Of a stretch of DNA of 64,000 nt, positions 4,969-39,869 are shown piece by piece. The translations under genes and the position numbers were made by a program. This DNA is from Cystobasidiomycetes sp. EMM_F5 (Eukaryota): NCBI GenBank assembly GCA_051047955.1, contig JBPGPT010000051.1, positions 1-64,000 on the forward strand, read 5' to 3'. Numbering within the stretch: position 1 is the first letter of the stretch; each line of letters starts with the position of its first letter. Under the pieces are notes generated by a model. That model was given only the letters and a program-made list of their open reading frames with translations, ran no database searches and was not told where the DNA came from.

Positions 4969-5380
4969 GCCGAGCGATTGATGAGGGTGGCGAGCCAAGC
5001 AGGAAGAGGAAGAAGCAGAGCGCCTTGCTTCCGAATGCGTGCTGGCGACGGCGGCGGCCTCAAATGATACAGTGGTAGGAAGATGGTCTACAATCTTCGA
5101 AACCTCTCCCTGTCCCGTTGGCTCTGGCCGCTTTGGGAGAAAAATGACTCACGTGATTTTTAGAGATCTACATTATTCAGATTCAAATGGGAAAATACGA
5201 TAATTCTTCTACGATATCTCTCTGGCAGAGCATTCAATGAACGATTTCAACTGAGTGCAAGAATGCGAGAAGAGGGGAAGATCGCTCAATGCAAAATGCA
5301 ACCGGCTGAAAAGACTGTGTGTCCAATATGAACGCACACATGACCTTGCCGTCATATTGAAAATGCCCGGCTAGCTCAGT

Positions 5381-5439
5381 GTAAGCTTAAAGCATAATGC
5401 CGTCCTGTCTTCGAAAATTCTCACACATATCCTTATCAG
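5381..5439 (+). other. Spliceosomal-type (GT-AG) intron inside the tRNA D-loop, between tRNA positions 16 and 17
   Basis: 59 nt long. 5' GTAAGC, branch-like CTCAC at 5420-5424, pyrimidine-rich CCTTAT, 3' CAG. Size and signals match the mRNA introns elsewhere in the window. Confidence 0.8.
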
Positions 5440-5460
5440 CGGTAGAGCATTAGACTCTTA

Positions 5461-5478
5461 CGTGCACTGCATGGGAAT
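5461..5478 (+). other. Canonical tRNA intron at position 37/38
   Basis: 18 nt (CGTGCACTGCATGGGAAT) starting one base 3' of the CTT anticodon. Its removal restores a 7-nt anticodon loop. Confidence 0.9.
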
Positions 5479-5518
5479 ATCTAATTGTCGCGGGTTCGAG
5501 CCCCGCGTTGGGCTCCTC

Positions 5519-5523
5519 TTTTT
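5519..5523 (+). terminator. RNA polymerase III oligo-T terminator of the tRNA gene
   Basis: TTTTT beginning 5 nt after the discriminator base. Confidence 0.7.
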
Positions 5524-5642
5524 ACCGGTTGGCTTCTACTGGAATGCATGCGAAACATTGTCCCTTTTTGCGCTGAACTTGAGAGTCGCTCGACGCATCT
5601 CCTTGCTCGCGCCTGTCCCCATACTTGCACGATGCCTGAATA

Positions 5643-8600
5643 ATGACAGACTCTGTTAACACTTCCCGCTCAGGCTCGCCCAGCACACCTCACCGAAAGC
5701 CGTCGCAGGATGCGCACCCTTTGGTCGATGACGATGGCAATACCGCTCCAGACAAGACCGCCAGTAAGGCCGCAGCGAGCAATCCCATCCCGTATAAAGC
5801 TAGAACTCGCCAGTCTCCATCATCACGGGCTAGTACGGCCATGTCGGGAGCGCCTGTGTTGACTTCGCCCAAAAATATCATACCAACGGTTGCTGCAACA
5901 TTGTCGAATACCGTCCCATCACCCACCTCTAGCGAACGGTTGAGTGGAAATCCCTCAAAGGTTGCATCCAAGCTCAAATTGCAAAGTCTGTACTCGTCCC
6001 TAGCGGTTGCCGGCTTGCAACCCAATAGCGCAGGTTGGCTGCTTGTGCAGAAGCTTGTCGCGGAACCAGCCTCCGACACTCAGCACTTATTGGGTACGAT
6101 TCTAGGTTCTGGGAAAGTGTGTCTGTTGTTACCGCTCGAGGAGATGAGTGCTTCAGACATCGACATGGATTTCATCAAGCGCCATACAATTCTCAGAGAC
6201 GAGGCTTCCATCATAACGTTGACAGGCTTACGAGGGATAGTATCAGAGTATGTAGCTGCTTTGCGCTGGTCAGTAGTTCTCCCGTACCTGATCTATTGTT
6301 CCGTTAGCAATACTATCAGCCTGCAGAGTGCCGGTGCTGACATAAATACAGACGACATCGCAGCGTTCGAGTCTGTCCTCTCAAACTTGGCGCAGCATAC
6401 GTCTCTGACGACCAAGCCAGGGCCGTCTGCGACTGACATTGTGCTAGGCATGCCAATCGACATCTATCTGTCCACAACTCCATCCGGTGCCGCTGCAGGT
6501 CCAGCTAAACCACCTACCCGTCGCTCATTGGTGAGCCTGTTTGGCGGTCAGCGAGCGCCATCATATGCATCGTCAGACCCGGCAGGTTTGGCGCCAGCTG
6601 CGATTATGGAAGTTTCCTCTACAGCTCAGCAACGCGTGACTGCTTGGCCTGTACAGCGCATCCTACGTCATGAACAATTGTCAGCTGCAATCACATCGCA
6701 TGAAGGTTCGAGAATTCGTACTAGACTTGAAAACCAAGACAGACTGGTAAAGGAGATGACGCTTTCGTCAGTTGCCAGGACCTGTTTTGCTACAAACAGC
6801 ACCATCTGAATGCTTGCTTTCGCAGCCTACTATCTCGTTTTGATCAATCTGCCCACACAAATGTTGAGTATGTATCGTCTCCGGAAGTGGATACCCCGCA
6901 TCAATCTCTAGTTGGAGCACACGTGGATACGCTAACGTCGGTGATTCAAGAATTTTACTTTGATGCTCGATCTCGAATGGAGGATGCAAGAAGCGAACGT
7001 ACGGCGCTGCAGGAAGCGCTTAACGTAAACGATTATACCAGCTTAGCAGAATCTGCGGACAATCAAAGTCTCGACGAAGAGTTGGAAGAGCTCGAGGCAT
7101 TCTTGTGCGAGGAACTGTATGAACAGTACGTTGTCTATGCTGACAACCATCGTACACCGAGCTCCATGGCTGAATGACATGAAGTCTGTTTTCGCCTTCG
7201 GGGTCCAGTGATCGGATAGAGGACGAAGCTCTCTCTTCTCGTATTGCTGCGCTGAATATGCTCGATCTGAGCTTGAAACATTTGGGAGTCTCTTTCGACG
7301 ACGCGTCAGACTGGAGTGAGCATCGCCAGACATTGAGCGAGGGTCTGGAGGCTGTGATTACATCATGCATCTCAGGTAGGTGTCGCACACATAATTTGTT
7401 TTTTATCGTGCCTGATATTGTAATTTACAGAGTTTTCGTCACTCAGCAACAAAGATTGTCGCAGTCCTGCAGCCAAGCTCGATGTACTTATTCGCGTACA
7501 CAAAAGTATCGCAGACTCTCTTGGAACGCTACCACCTATCCGCCTCATATCTGAGGACGAAGACAACGACGTACGCGGACCACCGGCCACTTTAGAGCTG
7601 AAGACCACTCCAGCGTCCCTCCGCGACAATCCGTCCGTCGCAACGGAGGTTAAAAATTCAGAAGCGGCCACCGAGCTACCAGAGGAGAAGACACCCAAAT
7701 TCTTAGCTTCGCAAACGGCTTCGTCGGAAGGCTTACCGATACCATCGATACAATTACCTAAAGCAGCATCAACGATAGAGGGCTATTCCAATTTGGCCAC
7801 ATCAACAATAATCACTCGGAATAGTGATACATTGGAAACACCCTTCGTGGGTACATCACTTAAGCGGCCAGAGAGCGACCGAACTATTCCGTCATCTAAG
7901 ATCAGTGCAGATGCAATACTTCCTTTACTGATATACGCTGTCGTGCAAGCAAATCCTTATAAGCTGGTCTCTAACGTATTATTCGTCCAGCGTTTCCGCA
8001 GCGACCATCTGATGCGGGGCGAAGGAGAATATTGCCTTACAAACATGGACGCCGTTCGTGCCTTTCTCACGAATTGCGATATTGCTTCGCTAGGCTTGAC
8101 GACCGATAAATTGGCGCTGTAGGTAATACTCTCACATCCGCTGAAGCACGCACTCACGCTGTCGTGTACGCCGCAGTCCGACTTCGCCAGTCCACCGGTC
8201 AAGGATGAGAGATCACGCAGCGCAGAGTCTAGATCATATGGTCGGTTCTGCAGGTAAAGTACTGGGACTAGCCGGAGATATCGGACTCGGCGGAGTGCGA
8301 ATTATGGGCGGGCTTCTGACGCGGACTGGCGCTACATTTGACGCTCGACAGCCACGAACGGTTGAAGATGTACAAAGTGTTCTCTCCGGAGGCGATAACA
8401 ACAAGCAGAGGAGTCTACGCGATGCCCTATTCCGGCGTGGGACTGTCGCCTCTGTCAAGCCTAGAATTGAGACGGAAATGGCGAATGTCATTCCCGCTTC
8501 CCCGCCGACTGGAGAGACTGGAGCGACAGCAGATAATGGAGAACCACAGAAGGCTGCTGAGCCCGTCAGCACAAACAACACGCTCGCTTCACGACTCGCC

Positions 8601-14411: not shown

Positions 14412-17400
14412 TCACTTCTGCTTCAAGGTCACATTGACACGTTGAGCTTTCGAAGCCGGATGTCAGCATATATAGATCGACTAGTGTTAACAACTGCAAG
14501 CTTACAGGATGCCAAGTCAATGAAGATATCGTCCGGTGCGCCTCTGTAGAGAGGTTGCTTCAGACGCTTCTGATCCAAGTAGTGACCAATGAAGCCGATG
14601 GATCGTCCGAGCACAAAGAGGGCATTGAGTGTACCGATGGAAAGGTACTCGGATGCCTCTTCAGCGGTGAAGGCGCCAGATGTCTTCAAAAGATCGCAGA
14701 AGCAGGCAGCGACTGCACCGTCGACATTGAGGATGAGAGTATCCTTCTTTGCTGTTGTCACCTTTTCAGTGGCAATGGCGTAGTCGAGTGTGGTCGTCGA
14801 GGGGAATTCCTTTTTGGCGAACGCCTTTACCAGCTCAACTCGGAGATCTGGATTGTTGACGCTCTTAATCTTGTGCCCGATACCAGGAATGAGCTTGTTA
14901 GCCTTGCGCATGGAGTCGACGAATTCTCTTGGGGTCAAACCCATGTCCTGTGCACGAGTGAACTCCTTGGCAGCATTGTCCAAAGCACCACCGAATCGGT
15001 CACCAATGGTCAAGAGACCAGATACGACGGACGAGATGAGATCCTTGCCAGCACGGGTGGTAATGATGGTATTCATGGCACCAGAGACGGCTGGACCGTG
15101 GTCGGCGGTCAGCTGAATGACCATCTCGAGGAACTTGCACGCGTAGGCGGGCAGGCGACGCTTGAACCAAAGCAAGCTGATGACACCACCAATGCCAATC
15201 TCTTCCTTGAAAACGTCCGAGATTGGCATTCCAGAGTAGAGGAGTTCTTGGCCGCGCTCGTCCGAGATGGTCGAGATGAAGCTGGCAGATTTTCGGACCA
15301 TACCAAGCTCTTGAGCCCACTTGTAATCGACGGGGATAGACGGAGGAATACGTTCTGCCTGAGGAACGATAAGACCCTGTTGAACGAGCTGCTGATAGGC
15401 GGATCTGAGGACGTCTGGCAGCTCTTCAAAGGTGTCTGGAACAATGAAGCCCGCAGCCCTCATTTCCCTGTTCTTGGCTTCTGCAGTCTCCATGTCTGAG
15501 TTTGCCATGGAACCAGCGTGTCCGAATTGAACTTCGCTCGTAAACATCTTTGCGCAGGTACCGATAGCCCAAGCGACAATTGGCTTCTTGATTGTGCCAT
15601 TCATGACGGCCTCGATGACCTTGTACTCTTCGATACCACCCACCTCACCGAGGAGGACGAGCATCTTTACATTGTCATCATTCTCGTATCGGAGCATGTG
15701 GTCGATAAAGGTGGTTCCAGGGTACCGATCGCCTCCAATAGCAATACCTTCGTACGTGCCATTGGTGGTGAAGGAGAGGATATTGTTGAGCTCGTTGGAC
15801 ATACCACCAGACTTGGAGACGTATGCAACAGAACCTGGTCTGTACAGCTTGGACGAGATGATGTTGTCCATCATGCCACCAGTGTTGCCGATACGGAAGC
15901 AGCCTGGTTTAATACCACCGACAGTAGCAGGACCAATGATCAAGACCTTCTTTGCCTTTGCAGCATGGAGAATCTCGCGAGCATGCCTCTCCGGAACACC
16001 TTCAGCAATCAGAGCAATGGAGCGGATCTGAGGGAAGCGCAGAGCGTCGAGTGTGGAGGAATAGACGGAACGGCATGAAGCAAAGTTGACGAGGACATCT
16101 GCATCTGGGCACTTTTTGACGGCCTCCTCTACGGAAGTGTAGACAGGAAGGAGGGTCTCCTTCGTTCCCCAGTAAAACTTTTGAACGTGGTGACCGCCAA
16201 ATTGATAAATCATGGCAGCAACACTGGGAGTAGATCGACCGCAGGCGTAGTCAAAGTCGAGCATACCCTGGATAGCACGCGGTTGCAGACCAAACACGAG
16301 CGACCGAGTCTTTTCGTCGTAGGGTCTGTACCACGGTCGTTGAGCTGGTGCGTCCTTGCCATCGAAGGTAATGACATCGCTTCGCTTGTCTGGGAGGGTA
16401 TTTGAGCTTTGACCTTGAGTCGGGCTTCCGGCACGAGATGGCACAACAGAGGCGACTGGGCTCTTGTTTGCACCATTGACAGCGAGGGAACCGTTCACTC
16501 TTGGCTTTGGAGCGGCGATGCCTGCAGTAATCGAAGCAGCAGCTTTAGGCTTGCCAACACCGAGAGCAAGAGGAACAATCTCTGTAATATGGGTTTCTGG
16601 TCCAAAGACCTGAATCTCCACGCCAAGAGTCTCGCCGAGCAGTCTCATATTCTTGAGACCCTCCTGGTAGTTTGGTCCACCACGTCGGACAAAGATGCGG
16701 ACCTTGTGCGTTTGCAGATTGGTCTGGTACTGCTTGAGAGCGCGGATGATACCCTTGAAAGTCGACGCGACATTTGTAAAATTGGCAATACCACCACCGA
16801 TAATGAGAATCTTGCCTTCAGGATTCGGGGTTCCTCGGGTCATCAGGTCGACTAAATAATTACGAACAGTGATACTTCAGGTTGTGATGGTTGACAAAGG
16901 GTGACGAGCAACTTACGAATGGTCTTTGCGTACTCATACGTTTGGCCCTCAGTTGGAGCACCAGAGTACTCGCCGTAGTTTGCCAATTCGCTCGCGAAGC
17001 CGTACGCGGCGATAGCATCGGAGTAGACGACTGAAGCACCACCACCGGCGACCATTGTCCACACTCTGCCCTCCTGGTTGAGGACTGTCAATTTGAGAGA
17101 AGCGCCTGTCGAAGCATCCAATTTCTGAATGTAGGCTTCCTCCTTTGTCAGATCACGACCGAAAGGTGCTGGCCAGACCATGGGTGGACCTCTATCTGCT
17201 GAAATCTTACTGGACGACGAAGCATCGCCGATGGACGTATCCCTTGCAATTGCCCATTTGGGACCGCAGATGAAGTCGGCCGTCTGATCTAGCTTTGCAG
17301 CCATGTCGAGGTAATGAATCTGGGGAGGGGAGGTTGGGGTAGCATCGAGGCAGATGAGTGGATTGATTTCGAGGTATGCAAAGTGAAGATCGACGTAGAC

Positions 17401-20792: not shown

Positions 20793-22634
20793 TGTGGAGA
20801 TGGAAAGGAATGTGATGGAGTACTGAGCGGAAAGAGGCAGACTGGAAGTAAAGAAGATGGCAAGAATTCGTTAATGCAGCCATCACGCTAGTAAACGTCA
20901 TAAACAGGTAAACATGTCAACAAACAGACACTTCGAGCAAGTCAAGTGTAAGTCAAGTGCAGCCGGCACGTAGGCTTCTTCTAGATTGGCAGTGCTAGAT
21001 CACACGTCAGACTAAGTTAAGTTGGCAGGATGTGGCGGTATGCCGCGCGTAAATACCAGGTTTAAACCAGAATGTGACCAGCGTCAATGTCAACACCGCG
21101 CGCGAGGGAAATGACATTAGTGTGACAGCAGGAAGAGCGTTAATCAATGTCATTGTCCATTAGGAGCGTGAGACGATGTCAAAAGACAGATAGGCTAATA
21201 TCGATATGTATCGATCAGATTGTCGAAGTCGTAACCCTACATCGCGCGATACTCAGCATGGACGCGTCCGCTTCATTCGTCAGCTCTCACTGAAAGCTGC
21301 TTGGTGCGTGCTCTGCGGGATCGTACGACGAGGTGCAAAAATTCAGCTTGGTTAGGTTAAGCTCAACCTGAAGGTAATGCATTCCAGTGGCACTAAGTTA
21401 GTAGCCTGACGTGAAGACCTGCGAGTCCGCTGCTGACGGAACGACGACATACTTAACTCAAACTAAGCACAATGCAACTTACCTCCCCGCGATTGCTCTT
21501 CTCGACTCGAATCAGCGGGTCACCTCCAATTTTCCAAGCCGCTATATATATTACAGAACATATTGCAGTAGTTGGAGCAAACAAATGCTTCAAGATAGAT
21601 ACATAGAACGGCTGCTTAGATAAATTACGCTGGCATCATCTTGCTGACTACGTCGTCCGCATACCCTTGCGCTCATGACTCGGCGTCAAGCGACTCTCAA
21701 CGTCTCTTCAAATCATATCGCAGCCGGCAAAGACGCGGGACGTAGTCTATCAGGCTGACACGCACACGAGCTTCAATATCTCATCTCCTCACAATAAACT
21801 TTGCTCCGATGCAGTAGAAGTCTGCAGGCCCACTGACTTCGATGGCCTCCCCAATATGGCCGCATAGTCGGGGTGCGGATTTGTGCGCTGCCCCGCATGG
21901 CCATGGCGCTGCAGGTGGTGTCTTGAAAATAGGCATACCCGCCTCGCTTATCCGATTTCGTAGACGCACGTCTGACTTGCCAGAAGCATTGAAGCACCAT
22001 GATCATCGAATGGCTGTCGAGATACATATCCACAAGTCGACGTCAATACAGATCGAGAGGATCGCGATCATCTCTCCCTACACCTCGATGCAAGCGTCGA
22101 CTTTGCCGACAATCTCCCGGCAGCACTGGCTTATGTGCTCAACATCAGTGTCGTGGCTGGAGGCTGTCGGGCTACAGTGCATCTCGTTGTGGTCGCGAAG
22201 CCGGCTCACGAGAGTATTATTGCGGGCATTGCAGATTATCTCAAAAGTACGTTTTGCAGCATATTGAGCCGAAAAGTGCTTGCTGACTGTATTGCTCGAC
22301 CTTCGTTGATGATAGCCGAATCTACATATGAGCGAGGCCTAAGCGCCTATCTACGTATTGGAAGCTATGACGCATGCCTAGTTGTACCCGCGAACTTTGC
22401 AACATTACGATCGGCAGTACGTTCTAGACTTCGGTAGATTTTGCACGAGAAAGCCTGGGTTGCTCACATTGCCAGCACTATCTGCGGAAGCAACCCGAGC
22501 ACAGGAGATGAAACAAAGCAGTTCCGGCTTGGTGATTGCACACCTGATTCGTGATTACAACTGAATCAACAGAATCAACAAGGTACAAAAGGAGGTGTGT
22601 TTCGCGTATGATCAATTCGAATATACACGCTGCT

Positions 22635-25947: not shown

Positions 25948-28900
25948 ATGGGGCCGCGCAAAGACAGTATCAACAACGGACGTCCACTCATCAAACACTT
26001 ACACGAAGAGAATTTTACAGGTGGGCGGCCCTTCCTACTCTTAATTACGACGAGTGCTGACTGACAGACTATAATACTCCCTTCCCGCAATGAATGCTGC
26101 GTGAACAATGCCAAATATGTAGGCGCTACACCCGTGACGAAACGGCTATCGGGCCAGTATCACCAGTATAACTCCAGTGCCGCGCCTAGTAGTCTACCAT
26201 ATTCATACTCTTCAGGCTCGCTGTACCAGTCAACACCGACGTCAAGTTCCGATGCCGGCAACCTCACGCAAACGCCAATTGCTGCTGCCTTTGCAAGGAG
26301 GCCGTCCGAGCCGTCTGGTCTGTCTGGTATGATGGTTCCCAACGCAGGCGAGAGTGCTATTGTCCCAAAGCGCGCTGCTCCCCTCCCTCCGTTGCATACT
26401 CACACAGCATACTCATCAGTCCCGCAAGGAGAGTCGATGGAATCACCGACTGCTGGAGGCAGTGGAGCTCTCCGGTCGTCCTATGTCGTTAGCAGTCGAC
26501 ACCCTCTCAATTCGCAGCACCACTTTCCGCAGCCATCCTCCCTGAAAAGCAGTACAAGCGGTCCCCCAAGCAACGGAAATGCATTCGATCCCTCTATGTC
26601 ATCAAGCCTACTTCAAGCACATCCAGGACTGATTTCGACGCAGAGCTCGCCGTCCGTCTTACCGTATAGTGCTTACAATATATCTGGTCCAATGTCACCA
26701 GCAGCTGCAGCTACGACTCGATTTAGAAACGCTACTGCACCTGCGGTGGGGTCGTCAGATGCTATCGATGGGCATGGTCTGGCGTCCAGAAATATACCGA
26801 CAACACTCGGGGGCGGTGCTTGGGAATTGCTCGAAGAGCCGATTGACTTACAGGAAGGCTCTGCATTTAGCTCAAATCGTAAAATGCCCCTTACATCTCG
26901 TCAGGCGACACAACCGTACTATCAGACGACAAACGGTGGCTTTTCTGGCTATGGCCGCAGGTCAACCGGTTCGGGAGGCTCGGCTGGATCTAGGCCTTCG
27001 TCACTGTTGGCAGCGACACAAGCCGCTGGTTCGGCAGCTGCATATAGTGCGATGGGTAGTAACAATCTCCTCACGGATCCTGCTACAGAAGCCGCTGCAC
27101 AACTGGCTACAGCAACCTTGACCTCATACAGCAACTATTCGCCTACAAATGGTGTTCCGCCCTCACCAACGAGACGCTCCCCCGTTCAAAGATATTCTGG
27201 CAATTACTCGCCAGGAGGCTCGCATCTCTTCATGACGAGCGTATATCCACACAATGCGGAACTGCCGGCGACAAATGCATACGCTTCGACATCGAGTCTT
27301 ACCAATGTCGGCTCGACTTCTTCGATGGCACCCTCAAATACATCGGCTACGACCGTTGCAGAAGTCACGCGCGTGCCGAACAAGCTCATATCGTCAAGAG
27401 CCAGGCGGAGCATGTCTTTAGAAAAGGATGCTGCAATGGCAGCTCAGGTGTCGCACACTCAGCAATTTCAGCAAGCCCCTTCAGGCCTCGCCCCAACGAG
27501 CGATACGTCGCTGGCTCCATCTCTGACATCTAGCACTCACTTCCAACCTGGAGCAATGTCGCGGGATGCCCCGCGACCAATGGGAGTGCGGAAGAAGAGT
27601 TTGGGAGCTGCATCTCCGTTGCTCGGAGACGACGACGTCAGTAGAGGAAGCGGGATCAAAAGCATGTTTGGTTTACTGGGCAAGCAAAGTAAGTTCGGGC
27701 ATCGTAGTGCGCAAGCGTCTTTCAGCTAACAAGCGCTTCATAGACACTGGATCCAAAGAGAAGAAGTTTGAGATTTCTACACCCTACGATCCAGTTCATC
27801 TTACACACGTCGGATTCAACTCTGATACGGGAGAGTTTACGGGCATGCCGAAAGAATGGGACAAGCTATTGCAGGACAGTGGCATATCCCGACAGGAACA
27901 AATGGCACATCCACAGACAGTCGTTGATATTGTAGCCTTCTACCAGGATGCAACAAAGAAGGAGGCCACAAGGCCTGGCGGCGAGGACGATGATGTCTGG
28001 CAAAAGTTTGGCGGAGCTCACGTTCGTCAGCTACCCCAGCCTGGTGCAGGAAGCTCGATGCCTACTCCACCCCAACAAGATCACTTCGAGCATTTGATGC
28101 CGACTCGCGCTGCTCCAAGTCCACCGACAACATATGCACCTTACTCTGCTGCTCCGCCAGTTTATCGAAAGCCTCTTGGACCGCCTCCAGCACAGTCACA
28201 CTCAGCTAGTCTACAACAGGAAGGAGCAGCCACCTCAGCTCCGCCAGAGCCTCCAAGCAAGCTTGACAGATCTATGTCGGTGCGACATGCCCCGAGGGAA
28301 CCTAGTCGCTATCAAGGTCAACACGCCTTGGATCGATCAGCATCTCAAAGGAGGGTGCCGTCAACGGGCGGCAACACATACGAGCCAAGCTTGACCTCAC
28401 CACCGCCTCCGCTGCCTTCTTCTGGCAATGTTCATCCTCTGCCTGAATCCGCACATGCCAATTTCCAGCCGAGTCGCCCAGCTCCACCGATGCCAATGCC
28501 AGGGCTACCGGTTCCAGCGTACCTGGGTGGGCCGAGCAATATCGGCAGTAGTCCCACGGTCGATCAGGCCGCAGCTATGCAAAGCGCCACAGCTTTGACA
28601 TCGGCACCACCGTCAATGAAAGCTCCGAAAGCGGAAAACGGAGAAACTGGAGACGTCCCTGTCGCAGTACCTCGCCGCAGGAAAGTGGACACCCAAGCCG
28701 AGCACGAAGCAGTCGTTGCGAGGTTACGGGAGATATGCACTGATGCAAATCCTACCAAGTTGTATCGCTCGCTTGTCAAGATTGGTCAGGGTGCATCAGG
28801 CGGCGTCTTTACAGCCTATCAGGTTGGGACAAACATGTCAGTTGCCATAAAGCAGATGAATCTCGAACAACAACCAAAGAAGGACGCCATCATTAACGAA

Positions 28901-29587
28901 ATCGTGGTCATGCGAGAGTCGCGGCATCGCAACATCGTTAACTTTATCGATTCATTTCTGTACAAGGGCGATCTCTGGGTAGTCATGGAGTACATGGAGG
29001 GCGGCTCGCTTACCGATGTTTGCACGACCAACATCATGACTGAAGGGCAGATTGCGGCTGTGAGTCGGGAAACGTTGGAAGGGATCAAGCACCTGCATGC
29101 CAACGGCATTATCCACCGCGACATCAAGAGCGACAATGTCTTGCTTAGCATGGATGGCGAGATCAAGCTTACAGACTTTGGCTTTTGCGCTCAGATTAGT
29201 GATGCGAATGCCAAACGGACGACAATGGTGGGCACGCCTTACTGGATGGCGCCAGAGGTAGTAAAGCGAGAGCGATATGGCTCGAAAATTGACATTTGGT
29301 CCTGCGGAATTATGGCCCTCGAAATGGTCGACGGCGAACCACCCTACCTTCACGAGAATCCGCTTAGAGCCATCTACCTGATCGCCACTACTGGCACGCC
29401 GAAGATCAAGGATCCCGAGCGGTTCTCTTCGGCCTTCAGAGATTATCTGAGTCGCGCCCTAAATGTGGTACCGGAAATGCGCCCTTCAGCCAATGAGATT
29501 CTCCAGCATCCCTTCTTTGCGACGGCGGAGCCACTCAAGAATCTCTATCCACTCATTAAAGCTGCAATTCAGGCCAAGAAGAAGTGA
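25948..29587 (+). CDS. STE20: PAK kinase Ste20 (CRIB plus kinase domain, no PH domain seen)
   Basis: CRIB motif EISTPYDPVHLTHVGF, GQGASGGV, HRDIKSDN, DFGFCAQI, TMVGTPYWMAPE and a C-terminal G-beta-binding-like LYPLIKAA. Two introns. Confidence 0.92.
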
Positions 29588-29952: not shown

Positions 29953-32900
29953 ATGGCCGTCGGCGGTCCTTACCGAGGCAAGCAGGGCAATACCAACTTT
30001 CGCGGCAGAGGCAGAGGAGGATGGAAGCCTCGTGGTGGTGGAAGGGGCGGCAGTAGTAGTCATAGCGGGTCTGCTAATGGTAATGGGAGGGGTCACAATG
30101 CTGGTCCTGCAGCTCTCAAGACCGAAGACGGCGGTACTGCGCGTAAGTGGCGACATGGATTGGACGTTGCAGAATGACTGGCTGCGAATGCTCACAATTA
30201 TTGGTACAACAGAGGACGATGCGCTTGAAGACTCCAAAGTACGGGATGAGATTGACGAACGACTCGGTTTCAAGCGATGGGAGCATGGGCCAGCTCGGAC
30301 AGGATGGCTCGTCAATATGCATGCTGTGCGGCACTTGCTGCTTGTCGAACTGGCAAATCGCGAACGCTGACTCCTACGTCTAGACACTGATAAAGGATGA
30401 GCAAGTTGCAGGGGGAAAGGCTGCAGTCGACTTTTACTTTCTCGAGGAAGATGGCGGCGCTTTGTACGAGCGGCAGCAATTCCCCACAGATGAAAAGCTG
30501 ACCTGTTGCAACTGTTTACAGCAAGAGCACAGTGGTGTATGAGCCGTACTTTATGATTGCGTGCAAGGTGAGTGAGCAATGTCTGCCCGTTCTTATTAGG
30601 ACTCTGCTCTAAACCAGGTAATTATACTTAGAATGGCATGGAGGGCCAGGTCGAAGAATGGTTGCTCAAGAAATACGAAGAGACAATCATCCGTTTACAA
30701 AGAGTCCGCAAAGAGGACTTGAAGTTGGTACGTCTTCCCCGCATGTACCGCCGCCTTGTGAAGACTGAAATAAACCCTTGAATAATTTCGACAGCCAAAT
30801 CACCTGCTGGGCTATCGAAGAACATTTATACAGCTATACTTTGCAAATATGAACGATATGTATACGGTGCGGCGCGACCTTCTCCCCATCGTAAACAAAA
30901 ATATGGCAGCAATGGACGCAGTCGACACTTATGCGGAAGTTGTCAGCGGGCTACAAGGTGCAGGCGGAGGAGACGCGCGGATGGAATTTACGGATGGTTT
31001 CGGCGCCGACGATATCGAAGGTGGTTACGTCCCAAAGGCTTCTCGCGTGATAGGGGGCAGCTCGCCCTCCGATGCCATTATCGACATACGGGAATACGAT
31101 ATACCCTACTATCTACGGGTAGCCATCGATAAAGGTCTGCTAGTGGACGATATTATCGGCAAAACGGGCGATACTGATATGTATTTTCCTAAGAAATTCG
31201 GGTTGGACTTTGGTACTCTGTCTCTGCCGAGAATGGCGAGATCCGTCTCGACTGCATCAAAGACCGTGTGGAGCGAGCGGAACCTGTCGTCATGGCATTC
31301 GACATTGAAGTGACAAAACCACCGCTGAAATTCCCAGATGCTGAAAATGATCAGATTATGATGATTTCGTACATGATTGACGGTCAGGGATTCCTCATCA
31401 CAAACCGCGAGATTGTGAGCGAAGACATTGAAGATTTCGAGTACACGCCAAAAGCGGAGTACGAGGGTCCATTTACGATATTCAACGAAGAGAACGAAGC
31501 CGCTGTCATCCGAAGATGGTTTGAACATGTGCAGGAAGCGAAACCGACAGTAATCGCAACGTATAACGGAGACAGCTTCGATTTCCCTTTTGTCGAAGCT
31601 CGAGCGAATCTGCATGGTATAGACATGCTGCAGGAGATCGGATTCGCAAAGGATAACGAGGGCGAATTCAAAAGCAGGCAATGTGTCCACATGGATTGCT
31701 TCCGATGGGTGAAGCGCGACTCTTACCTCCCGCAGGGTAGCCAAGGTCTGAAAGCCGTCACTGTGGCCAAGTTGGGCTACAATCCCATTGAACTCGATCC
31801 CGAGCTAATGACTCCGTAAGCTTCATCCTTCCAATATTACCACAATCAACGTTAATGTACTGGGCTGCTATCAGGTACGCACAAGAGCAGCCTCACATAC
31901 TATCGCAATACTCCGTGTCCGATGCCGTTGCAACGTACTATCTCTACATGAAGTATGTTCATCCATTCGTATTCTCCTTGTGCAACATTATTCCCCTCAA
32001 CCCAGATGAAGTGCTGAGGAAAGGGTCCGGTACACTATGCGAAACCTTACTAATGGTCGAAGCGTATCGAGGAGAGATTATCATGCCGAACCGGCATGTT
32101 GAGAGCTCTTCGGCAATGTACGAGGGTCATCTGCTCGAATCTGAAACCTATGTCGGAGGACATGTTGAGGCCCTCGAGGCAGGCGTATTCAGAAGTGATA
32201 TTTCTACCGATTTCCGCATGGTTCCTGAAGCGTGTCAAAAGGTATGCAAGGGTGATCCTCGTCAGACCCAGACTCTCCTGACATAGACTTTTCCCAGCTC
32301 ATTGATGATCTGGACCACGCTTTGAAGTTTAGTCTGGCAGAAGAAGGTAAAATCTCGCTGGATGATGTCGAAAACTACGACGAAGTTCGGCAATCAATTC
32401 AGAGCACCCTCGAAGAGCTGCGAGATAACCCACTTCGGAGCGACACACCGCTTATCTACCATTTGGACGTTGCAGCCATGTATCCGAACATCATGTTGTC
32501 AAACCGATTGCAACCAGATTCTGTGGTGTCTGAAGCAGCGTGTGCAGCCTGCGATTACAACAGGCCAGGCAAGCAATGCGATCGCCGAATGACTTGGGCG
32601 TGGCGCGGCGAGTACTTTCCTGCCAAATTGGACGAGTTCCGAATGATTAGAAACGCACTGGAGCAAGAGTCTTTCCCACCACTATGGCCAGATGGGCCGC
32701 CCCAGAAATTTAGCGATCTGAAGCCATCCGAACAGACGACCTTGATACACAAGCGACTGGGGGATTATTCGCGTACTGTCTACAAAAGAACACACGAGAC
32801 TAAGATCGTGAAGAAGGAGGCTATAATCTGCCAACGCGAGAATCCATTCTATATCGACACGGTCCGGGAATTTAGAGACCGCCGCTACGTGTACAAAGGC

Positions 32901-35900
32901 TTACACAAAACGTGGAAGAAGAATCTAGATTCTGCAAGTGAAGGGGGATCCCTCTCAGATATCGTGGAAGCCAAAAAGATGATTGTCCTGTACGACTCGC
33001 TACAACTGGCTCATAAATGTATTCTAAATTCGTTTTACGGCTACGTCATGCGGAAAGGTGCTCGATGGCACTCCATGGAGATGGCTGGTATAACCTGCTT
33101 GACTGGTGCAAGTATTATCCAAATGGCACGAAAGCTGGTTGAGCAGATTGGTCGTCCACTAGAGCTTGATACGGATGGTATTTGGTGTATGCTGCCCTCA
33201 AGCTTCCCAGACAATTATTCATTCAGACTCAGGAGCGGCAAGAAGTTTGGCATCAATTACCCGTGCACGATGCTCAATCATCTAGTACATGCGGACTTTA
33301 CGAACGAGCAATATCACGAGCTTGTTGACAAGGATCGTGGGGTATACAGGGTCAAAAGCGAGAATAGCATCTTCTTCGAGCTTGATGGACCCTACCGCGC
33401 CATGATCCTGCCATCCTCAAAGGAGGAGGACAAGCTGCTGAAAAAACGATACGCAGTCTTCAATGAGGATGGCAGTCTAGCGGAGTTGAAAGGTTTCGAA
33501 GTCAAGCGGCGCGGAGAATTGCAGCTCATCAAGATATTCCAGTCGCAAATTTTCGAACAATTCCTCAACGGGAATAATCTCGTCGAATGCTATGCATCCG
33601 TAGCTACAGTTGCTAATCAATGGCTCGACATTCTGTCGACACATGGCGCGAGTTTGACGGATGAGGAGCTTGTCGATTTGATCGCCGAAAACCGCAGTAT
33701 GTCGAGAACACTTTCGGAGTATGCTGGGCAAAAATCGACATCGATCAGCACGGCCCGGCGATTAGCTGAGTTCCTCGGAGAGAACATGGTGAAGGACAAG
33801 GGCCTCTCTTGCCGATTCATAGTATCTGCAAAGCCTTCCGGCGCTCCAGTAACCGAAAGAGCAGTGCCAGTAGCTATTTTTTCCGCCGAGCCTGCTATTA
33901 AGAGACACTTCTTGCGGCGATGGCTCAAAGACAATAGTCTTACGGAATTTGATCTGCGATCCGTACTCGACTGGGAATACTACATCGAACGTTTAGGTTC
34001 GGTCGTTCAGAAGCTCATAACCATTCCTGCGGCAATGCAAAAGGTGTCTAACCCCGTTCCGAGGATCAGACATCCAGATTGGCTACTCAGGCGAGTTGCC
34101 GGTCTAGAAGATCGATTTAAACAGCATAAGCTTGAAGACTTATTTGCGAAAATGCGGAGTACAGCAAACAAAGTCAGACACAATGGACCGGGGGATGAGA
34201 TCTCTGCTACACCAGAGAGCGTCCCTTCGGCCACTACCGAAGAAGGCCAAAATGCAAAGCTCGTAACGCAAGTGCCAGAAGCCGAGGTTGCTCCGCCTGA
34301 TTTCCGTCTCGATTATCCAGCTTGGATTGCATACCAGAAGGTTATTTGGCGCAGACGACGACAGGAACGAAAGGCAGCAAGGACAGCGGGAATCAGTTCC
34401 AAGAACGGTGCTATCGGAGCTATGTTCGGCAGACAGCATTTCAGCCTATCCTCGCACACTTGGGAAATCATACAAATCACTCAGCCTTTAGACGCGCGTC
34501 CTGGAGAATACAAGATGTGGCTACTGATAAACGGTACTCTACAGCCGCTGAAGCTGCGCATCCCTCGCGTGTTCTATCTGAATTTTAAGAAGCTGGATGA
34601 TGTAGAGCGAAGCTTTCCTGCCTTCTGTGACTAGTATGTACTTTCGAGCCTTGTCATCACATCCTTCGCAATACTAATTCGCCTGCCAGCCAATTCGTCA
34701 CGCGCACATTACCTAGGGGTCAAGCATGTCATCACTTGGTTGCTTGCACTACAGATGAGACCTCCTACCGCAAGAACGAGGCAGCGATGTCTATGCTGAT
34801 GAGCCATCCGGACGTGGATGGGGTGTACGAAACAAACGTGCCTCACTTGGTCCGTGCTCTCGTTAAACTGGGCAATAAATGTAATCCAAGTGCAAAATCG
34901 GGTGTCAGTCTCAGTCGCGGTTTAGATCAAGGTTTCCGCCTACAAGACCTGATGTCGCCAATGTCGTCATTGAGCCGTCGAAGATACCTTGACGGAGGTA
35001 GGGCGTTACAGTACGGTTATCTGTACCACAGTAATCAAGACAGTCGACATCTTATCTGCCTGATATTGCCGCAAGAGAAGCCGCGGCTCTACGTGGTCGA
35101 CAGAGGCCGTAACAGAGAACTCCCCAATATGGATAAATACTACTTGGAAGCCAAAGCTGCTTTCGAATCTAAATTTGGAATCGGTCGAGCTGCCTCGCAG
35201 TCGCGAGTATTCGACTATCCTGCTTCGGTAACAATTGAAGTGTCGTACCACGCTGAGCCCGATGTAGTGTACCGCAATATCTCGAAAGAAATGGCAAACT
35301 ATCAGTCGAAGAAGCAGGGAGCAACCGTCATTGCGATATGCTCTGCTGTTAGCAGGTCCTTCTATGAGCAGAAGGTACCTTCTTTACAGCATTTCCCTAC
35401 CGTGATGATACCATCAAGCCGTATGGACAATACGTACCCGACTCGTCTGCTGTGGCAGGCTCCAGCTGCCAAGCGGATGATTCAGCATTACCTGCGATTG
35501 GCATCCTGGTTACAGGACAGACTGGAATATGCGCACAAGGGCAATATACCACTGTAAGACAAGTTGCCTCGCATATATCACATGAAACGAAGCTGACCCA
35601 CTCGACTAGTTCCAATCTTGGAGACGACGCCTCTCTGGCCTTGACGGACATCGAGTACGCTAGACGACTGGTCAAGGCCGATGTGCTGTTGTGGTGGTCA
35701 GCTGGCACAAAACCTGATCTGGGTGGACGTCAGCACGACGCCAATCCACAGAATAGTGCAGACATGTCAGCCAACCCGGAAATTGTCAAGGCTGGCGCAT
35801 ATACAAACGCCTCTGTTGAGATAGCGCTCAAGGACCTCGCCATTGATGCTATATTGCAATCAGCCCTTGTTTATGAGCTCGAAGGGGCGGAAGGGGCTGT

Positions 35901-37605: not shown

Positions 37606-39869
37606 TCAAAGTATAATAAGATCATCATCTTCGTCGTCGAGTGTGATGGCCCCTTCAGACTGAATCCGGACCTTTTTGAAATCTGGAACGCTAAGATCGG
37701 CTGTCGAGGCCGACCGCTTCCGCGAAGGTGGAGCAGATGGTTCATCCACGGTCGATGATTGTGGCGAAGCAGGTGGCTCTGGCTTCTCGGGAATGGATGG
37801 TTTCGATATCGAAATATCGAATCCTTTGCCAGACTTGATATTGCTGCGGGATGACGACATCAGTAATTATTACGCCTTCAAAAAGCCCATACTTACTTAG
37901 AGATGATGAAAATGACCGGCATTCGATTGCCCTCGTCGTCGTTGACCTGAAGGTGGCATCCTGCTCGAATATCGAGCTCCTCGAAAGTTTTGGATACATT
38001 ATCGTCGAAATCTGCATCATAAACGATACGACTGCCTTCAAGAAGGCTGGTATCCCATTCAATGCCAGCCCATTCTTTCACTACATCATTGAGGAAAGTG
38101 CCCAAGGTCATGGTGGCTGTATCGAGTTTGACCGGAATGTAGGGGGTACGACAGGTAGAGCATGCTGGATTGGGCAGACTCAGCTTCGAGCTATTTAGTG
38201 CTCGAGCTTGAGTACGTGTATACCAAACAGCACGAGCGGACGTCCACTCTTTCTTGAGTACTGCAATGGCTTGAAGTATGAGTGCTCCTGCTATGATAGC
38301 ATTTGTGGTTGCTATTGCTGGTATAATGTTGCCCGCCATCTGTTTGACATCGAAGCGGCTTTTGAGGGGTATATTGAAAATGGTTGCGCGCAGGTTGGCA
38401 GCAGAGGTTGCGAAATCTAGTGCGTCGTCGTCGTCCTTGTCCCAGTCTATAGGTTCAGATTGCTGCGCCATTTGACGCTTAGCCAAGCGAGACAGGCTAA
38501 ACCGAGCAGGCTACGTCAGTGCGCATTCGTAGGGGTTGAGCGTATCCTGCACGTACCTGTCGAGGAATAGGTCGAAACAATCCTTCACACTCGGTAAGCG
38601 CTGATCACGGATACCGCCCACACTGGACAGCGGTTCTGATGTTGTGGGCATATTCTCCATCTCGTCAAAGTTTAGTGGCGTTGGTTTATTGCGATGTTTC
38701 CACATCTCCTCCATCGATAACAGCCGCTGAATGTCTTCTGTAAACACCTAGGAGGCTTTGTTTAGCCGTAATGTCTCGCAGATTAGCGGATGAGCTGACT
38801 TTTTCGACAATACGTTTTTGGAACCCGGTCGTGCCTATTGACTGGCGGAGAGCTTTCATTTGGAGCGCTTCCTTTCGCAAGTTCTCGATTTCGGCGGCTG
38901 CGGGGGATTATCAGTATTTCACCGCCAAAATGCAGGCAAACTCACGATTCTCGCCAGACTGTGCAGCTTTGTCTAGATCCAGCGAGTCCTGCTCATCGTC
39001 GACACCGAACAGAGCGCTGCGCCGTACAGAGGCTTTCGTAAATCATGCGGTACGCTCGCTCAGGGCTACTCTAACTTACGGAAACAAGTAGCTCTTTGCC
39101 CATACTATGCAATGAATAGGAGTGCTGGGAGTACTTCGGATTGTGCAGATTGGAAAGCCTTTTGGAGTTTCCTTTGGCTGGCAGTCGTAGCATTCTGTCA
39201 GATCCTGCGTAAGATGTGCGGCCAGTGTCAGAAGCGACGCATCTGAATGCGCCAACCAAACATACCTTCTTGATGGGTTGAACCTGGCCGATAAAGCCAG
39301 CAGTGCCGCTTTCTATCAATGGCACATCGGCTGCCAAGCACATTTTGTTCACATGCCGCCGCGCATCTAGGAGGGACGATAAATCAGTATGCTCCGGGTA
39401 AGAGAGTATCGTCATGACACACCCAGGTTGTCCAGCGCATTCATCACAATATCGAACCCGGCAAACCAGTCGACATCATACTGAGGTTCTTTTATGTTTC
39501 CATGAATGGCATTGACATTCGCGTCGGGGTTGAATTTGTTGGCTGTCTCCTTTGCTACGAGCGCCTTCGGTCGCTTGACGTGTTGTTTCTGGAACAGAAA
39601 CTGGCGGTTCAGGTTCGATAGATCGATAGTATCGAGGTCAATCTATAAAAGGCCGTGAGTATGGTAATGGCCCCAGCGAGCGACTGCATTGCAGACGCAA
39701 GGCGTACAATGGTGATGTTGCCAAATCCAACTTCAACCACATTCTTGAGGACCTCGCAGCCTATACCGCCAGCGCCGACACAAAGAATGTTTGCCGATTG
39801 CACACGCGTAAAGAGGTCTGATCCGAGCAGCGCTCTCGCGTAAGAGTAGCGCGCCTTGGACGCAGACAT
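37606..39869 (-). CDS. UBA2: SUMO-activating enzyme E1 subunit Uba2
   Basis: [23 protein letters not shown], catalytic [36 protein letters not shown] and an acidic SIM-like C-terminus DDDLIIL. Confidence 0.95.

Follow-up and report, generated by a model that had tools for sequence, protein, structure and literature searches.

Can a single nuclear tRNA gene be interrupted both by a spliceosomal intron and by an ordinary tRNA intron and, if so, would its transcript have to pass through two splicing machineries? This question is raised by a locus on the plus strand of a 64-kb stretch of fungal DNA (the whole stretch analysed, hereafter the window), where a tRNA-Lys(CUU) gene in three exons occupies 150 nucleotides, from 5365 to 5514. 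All parts of the gene lie on the plus strand. Exon 1 (5365..5380) covers tRNA positions 1-16, i.e. the 5' strand of the acceptor stem, U8 and A9, the 5' strand of the D stem, and A14, G15 and U16. It is followed by insert 1 (5381..5439), a 59-nt GT...AG sequence located in the D-loop. Exon 2 (5440..5460) covers positions 17-37 and is made of C17, G18 and G19 (the latter two at 5441-5442), the 3' strand of the D stem, the 5' strand of the anticodon stem, the anticodon CTT (5457-5459) and A37. Insert 2 (5461..5478) follows at the 37/38 site, and exon 3 (5479..5514) provides positions 38-73, with the 3' strand of the anticodon stem, the variable loop, the T arm, the 3' strand of the acceptor stem and the discriminator T. 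The first-pass annotation had described a 59-nt insert just ahead of G18/G19, a classical 18-nt intron at 37/38 and, between them, a 21-nt exon carrying the anticodon. Its coordinates for both inserts proved exact: the first insert falls between U16 and C17, the second occupies the canonical tRNA intron site between A37 and A38, and the middle exon has the length and the anticodon ascribed to it.

The gene escapes standard detection in its native form. ARAGORN, run with anticodon-loop introns allowed, reported no tRNA in the native window, and Rfam missed the locus at the gathering threshold, returning at a permissive threshold no more than a match to part of a tRNA (18.4 bits, 5434-5506). When both inserts were deleted in silico, ARAGORN returned a clean tRNA-Lys(ctt) cloverleaf; deletion of insert 1 only resulted in a mis-called Val tRNA, and deletion of insert 2 only in nothing. 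After intron removal, all stems are intact and each of the 17 conserved tRNA positions checked (U8, A14, G15, G18, G19, A21, A26, U33, A37, C48, G53, T54, T55, C56, G57, A58 and C61) is as expected. Because the bases flanking each junction differ, the insert boundaries are fixed for the same mature product and cannot slide. Judged on the sequence, the anatomy of the gene is very probably real and far beyond chance. It is also the one tRNA gene detected in the 64-kb window, where neither ARAGORN nor Rfam (at gathering or E-value threshold) found any other and where a B-box scan gave four matches, one of them that of the tRNA.

What kind of interruption is insert 1? It starts with a 5' splice site, GTAAGC (5381..5386, plus strand), that fits GTRNGY, contains a candidate branch site, CTCAC (5420..5424, plus strand), whose A, at 5423, lies 16 nt from the end of the insert, and finishes with a 3' splice site, CAG (5437..5439, plus strand), which holds the first AG downstream of the candidate branch A. 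The boundaries imposed by the tRNA fall exactly on the GT and the AG, and the sole competing GT near the start of the insert, at 5379, reads GTGTAA. We counted the 59-mers that, like insert 1, begin with GTRNGY, end with YAG and have CTVAY 8-30 nt upstream, on both strands of the window, and obtained 5 out of 127,882 (3.9e-5); multiplying the three marginal signal frequencies gave 1.3e-5. Such frequencies place the signals of insert 1 far outside what chance would give a random insertion. A bulge-helix-bulge, defined as two 3-nt cut-site bulges with a 4-bp helix between them and a flanking outer helix, is absent at insert 1: in the three registers, 0, 1 or 2 of the 4 central pairs and 0 of the 3 outer-helix pairs are present. 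No second copy of the insert was found in the 64-kb window, the best other match being 10 nt long. A 4-nt TCAG repeat near both insert ends was considered as a target-site duplication and rejected, since it is within chance and since the standard D-loop is restored without TCAG.

The UBA2 gene of the window (SUMO-activating enzyme subunit; 37621-39857, minus strand) provides a standard for introns of this genome. It was modelled by spliced alignment to its closest homologue, P0001, and its eight introns, of 48-65 nt, are thus homology-supported; the spliced ORF of 593 aa is stop-free and shares 420 identical residues with P0001 over 592 aligned positions (71%). GTRNGY starts are found in seven of the eight introns and YAG ends in all eight. 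At 59 nt, insert 1 falls inside their length range, and the UBA2 intron at 39707-39643 shares both of its less common features, having a GTACGC start (C at +6) and CTCAC 13 nt from its end. Since insert 1 matches the features of the UBA2 introns, it is, by its sequence, an ordinary intron of the genome in an extraordinary host. By every available sequence criterion, insert 1 is a spliceosomal-type intron.

The best named homologues of UBA2 come from basidiomycetes of the Pucciniomycotina (43-50% identity), the subphylum to which the yeast Rhodotorula hasegawae belongs, with ascomycetes close behind; one further UBA2 protein match has 65% identity over the query exon. With only 43-50% identity of UBA2 to named fungal homologues, the organism has therefore no close sequenced relative in the collection. 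The GC content of the window is 51.5%, and introns are short and frequent. A single 804-aa ORF at 14429-16843 (minus strand) encodes a fused ATP-citrate lyase with Citrate_bind, CoA_binding, Ligase_CoA and Citrate_synt domains; the fused gene is the basidiomycete arrangement, filamentous ascomycetes having two genes. Taken together, these features point to a dikaryan fungus, probably a basidiomycete. Also present are a PAK-type kinase gene with PBD and Pkinase domains (27566-29587, plus strand) and part of the gene for the catalytic subunit of DNA polymerase epsilon (POL2_thumb; 32322-34634, plus strand); both are ordinary eukaryotic housekeeping genes, and they confirm a nuclear fungal context. 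Two weak box C/D snoRNA-like Rfam matches, SNORD105 (23.5 bits, 22075-22157, minus strand) and sR55 (19.9 bits, 16796-16838, plus strand), are both well below gathering score and probably due to chance.

Insert 2 is not a GT-AG sequence. In the predicted pre-tRNA (ViennaRNA) it contains a 5-bp hairpin, and a bulge-helix-bulge geometry can be drawn with 3 of 4 central pairs in each register and 3 of 3 outer-helix pairs. In the strict register, C32 is opposite an A at the anticodon-intron pair; the register shifted by one has a C-G pair with a 4-nt bulge. By position, insert 2 is a canonical tRNA intron. It resembles the canonical 37/38 intron cut by TSEN, as outlined in the excerpts of PMC10485636 on which we draw, in its position, its shortness, the predicted pairing of anticodon loop and intron and the outer helix, but differs by the C-A mismatch of its anticodon-intron pair in the strict register. 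The earlier proposal that this pre-tRNA apparently needs two different splicing machineries is thus upheld as far as the types of interruption are concerned, one with spliceosomal signals and no bulge-helix-bulge, the other at the canonical 37/38 site; the use of two machineries belongs to the conditional reading given below.

The signals around and within the gene are those of an RNA polymerase III unit. The A-box region, TAGCTCAGTGT (5372..5382, plus strand), agrees with the A-box consensus, TRGCNNAGTGG, at 10 of 11 positions; its last two bases are the GT of the intron, and the first G of insert 1 helps to keep the genomic A box at this score. The B box, GGTTCGAGCCC (5493..5503, plus strand), is perfect, and a run of five T's (5519..5523, plus strand), a candidate RNA polymerase III terminator, starts 5 nt past the tRNA end. 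Inside the gene, no T run exceeds 2; the lack of internal runs of at least 4 is weak evidence, because five of the eight UBA2 introns are also without them. The A box and the B box are 110 nt apart, which exceeds the usual spacing in tRNA genes and was counted against use of the gene. These signals suggest that RNA polymerase III could transcribe the gene. Its neighbours, a Vps62-like gene on the minus strand and a VPS9-domain gene on the plus strand, are divergently oriented and leave 644 nt between them; the ATG of the VPS9-domain gene, at 5643, is on the same strand as the tRNA and 128 nt from its 3' end. Five upstream ATGs (5397, 5471, 5544, 5548 and 5632) are found between the tRNA start and 5643, suggesting therefore, weakly, that the VPS9-domain mRNA starts downstream of the tRNA. 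Three of them (5544, 5548 and 5632) are located between the terminator and 5643, and that at 5632 opens a three-codon frame.

The best single reading of the sequence is that the gene is used and would need the spliceosome and then the endonuclease, and we give this reading a probability of about 0.5. According to it, a U2-type GT-AG spliceosomal intron would have been inserted into the D-loop of an intact nuclear fungal tRNA-Lys(CUU) gene that has an ordinary 37/38 intron. RNA polymerase III, directed by the B box and by an A box that is mostly preserved, would read through both inserts and stop at the T5 run. The nuclear spliceosome would then free a 59-nt lariat (GTAAGC, branch A at 5423, CAG), joining U16 to C17. 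The D stem and the G18/G19 elbow would form only after removal of insert 1, so that the precursor would from then on be handled normally in end processing, in export and by TSEN, and TSEN together with tRNA ligase would take out the 18-nt intron.

That the spliceosome would act before TSEN is inferred from structure prediction and by analogy with other systems. In ViennaRNA ensembles, the four-pair D stem has a probability of 0.12 in the primary transcript versus 0.97 without insert 1, and a GCCG of insert 1 is predicted to pair with C17-U20, which includes G18 and G19. Enforcing the D stem with insert 1 present costs only 1.4 kcal/mol, and so the structural block on TSEN would be weak. In Cyanidioschyzon merolae, where tRNAs can contain multiple endonuclease-type introns, the 37/38 intron is always the last to be removed (PMC3978253). 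[quoted passage not shown] With a nuclear spliceosome and a mitochondrial TSEN, compartments alone would therefore dictate the order in this fungus, provided that it resembles the two yeasts. Retrograde import of tRNA into the nucleus exists, and the opposite order is thus not impossible. Three further points were counted against a functional gene, namely that C32 is opposite an A at insert 2 in the strict register, that the 5' exon consists of just 16 nt plus leader, and that Pol III transcripts have neither a cap nor polymerase coupling, both of which aid splicing.

In a serious rival reading, one tRNA-Lys(CUU) gene out of several would recently have been hit by an intron, through reverse splicing and retro-insertion or through intron transposition, leaving a disabled or barely used copy whose transcript is poorly spliced or unspliced and degraded, with no regulated two-machine pathway. 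It has to be taken seriously because deleting an inserted intron on paper will always give back its host. The clean tRNA obtained by in-silico removal does not discriminate between the two readings, since precise restoration is expected of any intron insertion and is no proof of ongoing splicing, and intact exons are as compatible with a recent insertion as with a functional gene. Fungal genomes usually carry several copies per tRNA gene, which was counted for a disabled copy, as were the predicted disruption of the D stem in the primary transcript and the long distance between A and B boxes. A review of U6 introns, too, wants expression and splicing of intron-bearing U6 paralogs to be validated (PMC5855946). 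However, the stems, all 17 checked positions, the terminator and the B box have remained intact, the first intron base holds the A box at 10/11, and the insert occurs only once in the 64-kb window, where further copies would have pointed to a multiplying element. We regard a disabled copy as a real possibility, though not a probable one.

The remaining rivals concern how the RNA would be made or cut, or whether the insert is there at all. If the tRNA were made from, or just inside, a Pol II transcript such as the 5' leader of the VPS9-domain gene, a leader intron would be spliced co-transcriptionally, and RNase P and RNase Z would then free the tRNA, if it were freed at all. Spliceosomal splicing normally goes hand in hand with Pol II transcription, the same-strand ATG at 5643 is close by in the 644-nt intergenic region, and the choice of a tRNA gene as target would be accounted for if the intron had been gained as part of an mRNA leader; yet the gene comes with a B box, a nearly complete A box and a T5 terminator of its own, and the five upstream ATGs would sit in the leader, making this route improbable. 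Removal of both inserts by the tRNA splicing endonuclease, the GT-AG look of insert 1 being a coincidence, has precedents in the D-loop introns cut by the endonuclease in C. merolae and in the many ectopic introns of the Guillardia nucleomorph without a defined bulge-helix-bulge (PMC3978253). Set against the missing bulge-helix-bulge of insert 1 and against three spliceosomal signals at exact boundaries, with a chance of about 1e-5 to 4e-5, it appears highly unlikely. An assembly or sequencing artefact would have placed a foreign 59-nt piece in a normal tRNA gene. The search for sequencing runs containing the stretch turned up none of RNA. From three sequencing runs, a single 169-nt contig was obtained, which maps to 6454-6622, outside the tRNA gene, and the DNA run behind it contained 0.10 of the sampled window words, a result counted in favour of an artefact. 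But a random join would not give exact GT...AG boundaries and a branch site, and the window is free of N and has continuous genes on both flanks, so that an artefact is barely credible.

Similar interrupted tRNA genes were sought in collections that contain few or no fungi. In a metagenome scan of such a collection, the D-loop GT...AG pattern gave 0 matches, and the exon-2 pattern gave 1 match (L001), an unrelated tRNA-Lys with no insert at that place. A relaxed pattern matched 21 loci in prokaryote genomes, again a collection with few or no fungi, none of which is a tRNA split in the D-loop: 17 of the 21 are without a tRNA according to ARAGORN, and the matches at the other 4 end in an ordinary complete tRNA. 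Viral contigs, likewise with few or no fungi among them, gave 0 matches. On a Saccharibacteria contig (L007, 289-373, plus strand), a complete tRNA-Val(gac) has, about 50 nt upstream of it, a repeat of a 5' tRNA fragment; the fragment, made of the acceptor strand and the start of the D-arm, has the appearance of a truncated duplicate and no bearing on the tRNA-Lys finding.

Returning to the reading in which the gene is used, a bolder version holds that the tRNA is expressed and matured by the spliceosome and then by endonuclease and ligase, which would make it the first nuclear tRNA with a spliceosome-dependent supply and maybe the tip of a hidden class; this we advance tentatively, as something that may well not hold. 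If it were true, the non-coding hosts of spliceosomal introns (U6, U2, U5, U1 and rRNA) would be extended to tRNA, and intron gain could strike an RNA with no role in the spliceosome. The locus would then also offer a natural substrate for studying the action of the spliceosome on a Pol III transcript that is capless and tightly folded, and a direct test of whether the endonuclease requires D-arm and elbow to be folded. A dead copy would still be a dated snapshot of a fresh intron insertion in a non-coding gene. In either case, a blind spot of tRNA annotation tools is exposed, ARAGORN and Rfam having both missed the native gene. Since standard tRNA finders are blind to D-loop inserts, intron-rich fungi may hide more tRNA genes with spliceosomal introns.

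Spliceosomal introns in non-coding RNA genes are known; what is new is the tRNA host and the presence of a classical tRNA intron in the same gene. In the full-text literature searched, with subscription journals outside its scope, no report of a spliceosomal intron within a tRNA gene was found, and the exact phrases 'spliceosomal intron(s) in tRNA' occurred in 0 papers. In textbooks and in recent papers, spliceosomal and tRNA introns are treated as unrelated classes (10.1101/2025.06.17.660180; PMC10946435, in the parts on which we draw). The closest precedents come from the fungal small nuclear RNAs. The U6 RNA of S. pombe is a Pol III transcript that is spliced by the spliceosome, spliceosomal introns are present in fungal U6, U2, U5, U1 and rRNA genes, and Rhodotorula hasegawae has them in its U2, U5 and U1 genes (PMC5855946). 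The introns of these small nuclear RNA genes are often species-specific insertions thought to come from reverse splicing, and the review asks what determines the landing sites of such insertions; tRNA is missing from the non-coding hosts that it names (PMC5855946). The tRNA-Lys gene is like the U6, U2, U5 and U1 genes in that a short intron with canonical 5', branch and 3' sites interrupts a structured non-coding RNA gene, but it differs from them by an additional endonuclease-type intron, so that two unrelated machineries would be needed. Moreover, tRNA is not part of the spliceosome, which rules out closeness to the catalytic centre as the cause of the insertion.

Two further systems each share part of this architecture. 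The spliceosomal introns in rRNA genes of lichen-forming ascomycetes (Bhattacharya et al. 2000, via PMC5855946; PMC8527467) are alike in having a fungal host not transcribed by Pol II, but in the passages on which we draw that host is a Pol I rRNA gene without a second class of intron, whereas here it is a Pol III tRNA gene. C. merolae, the nucleomorph of Guillardia theta and Archaea have several introns per tRNA gene, including at D-loop positions, as does the gene described here; those introns are defined by a bulge-helix-bulge and cut by the endonuclease (PMC3978253), while insert 1 has GT, branch and AG signals instead. In C. merolae, their removal is ordered, with the 37/38 intron coming last (PMC3978253), and it is this same order that we propose for the tRNA-Lys precursor.
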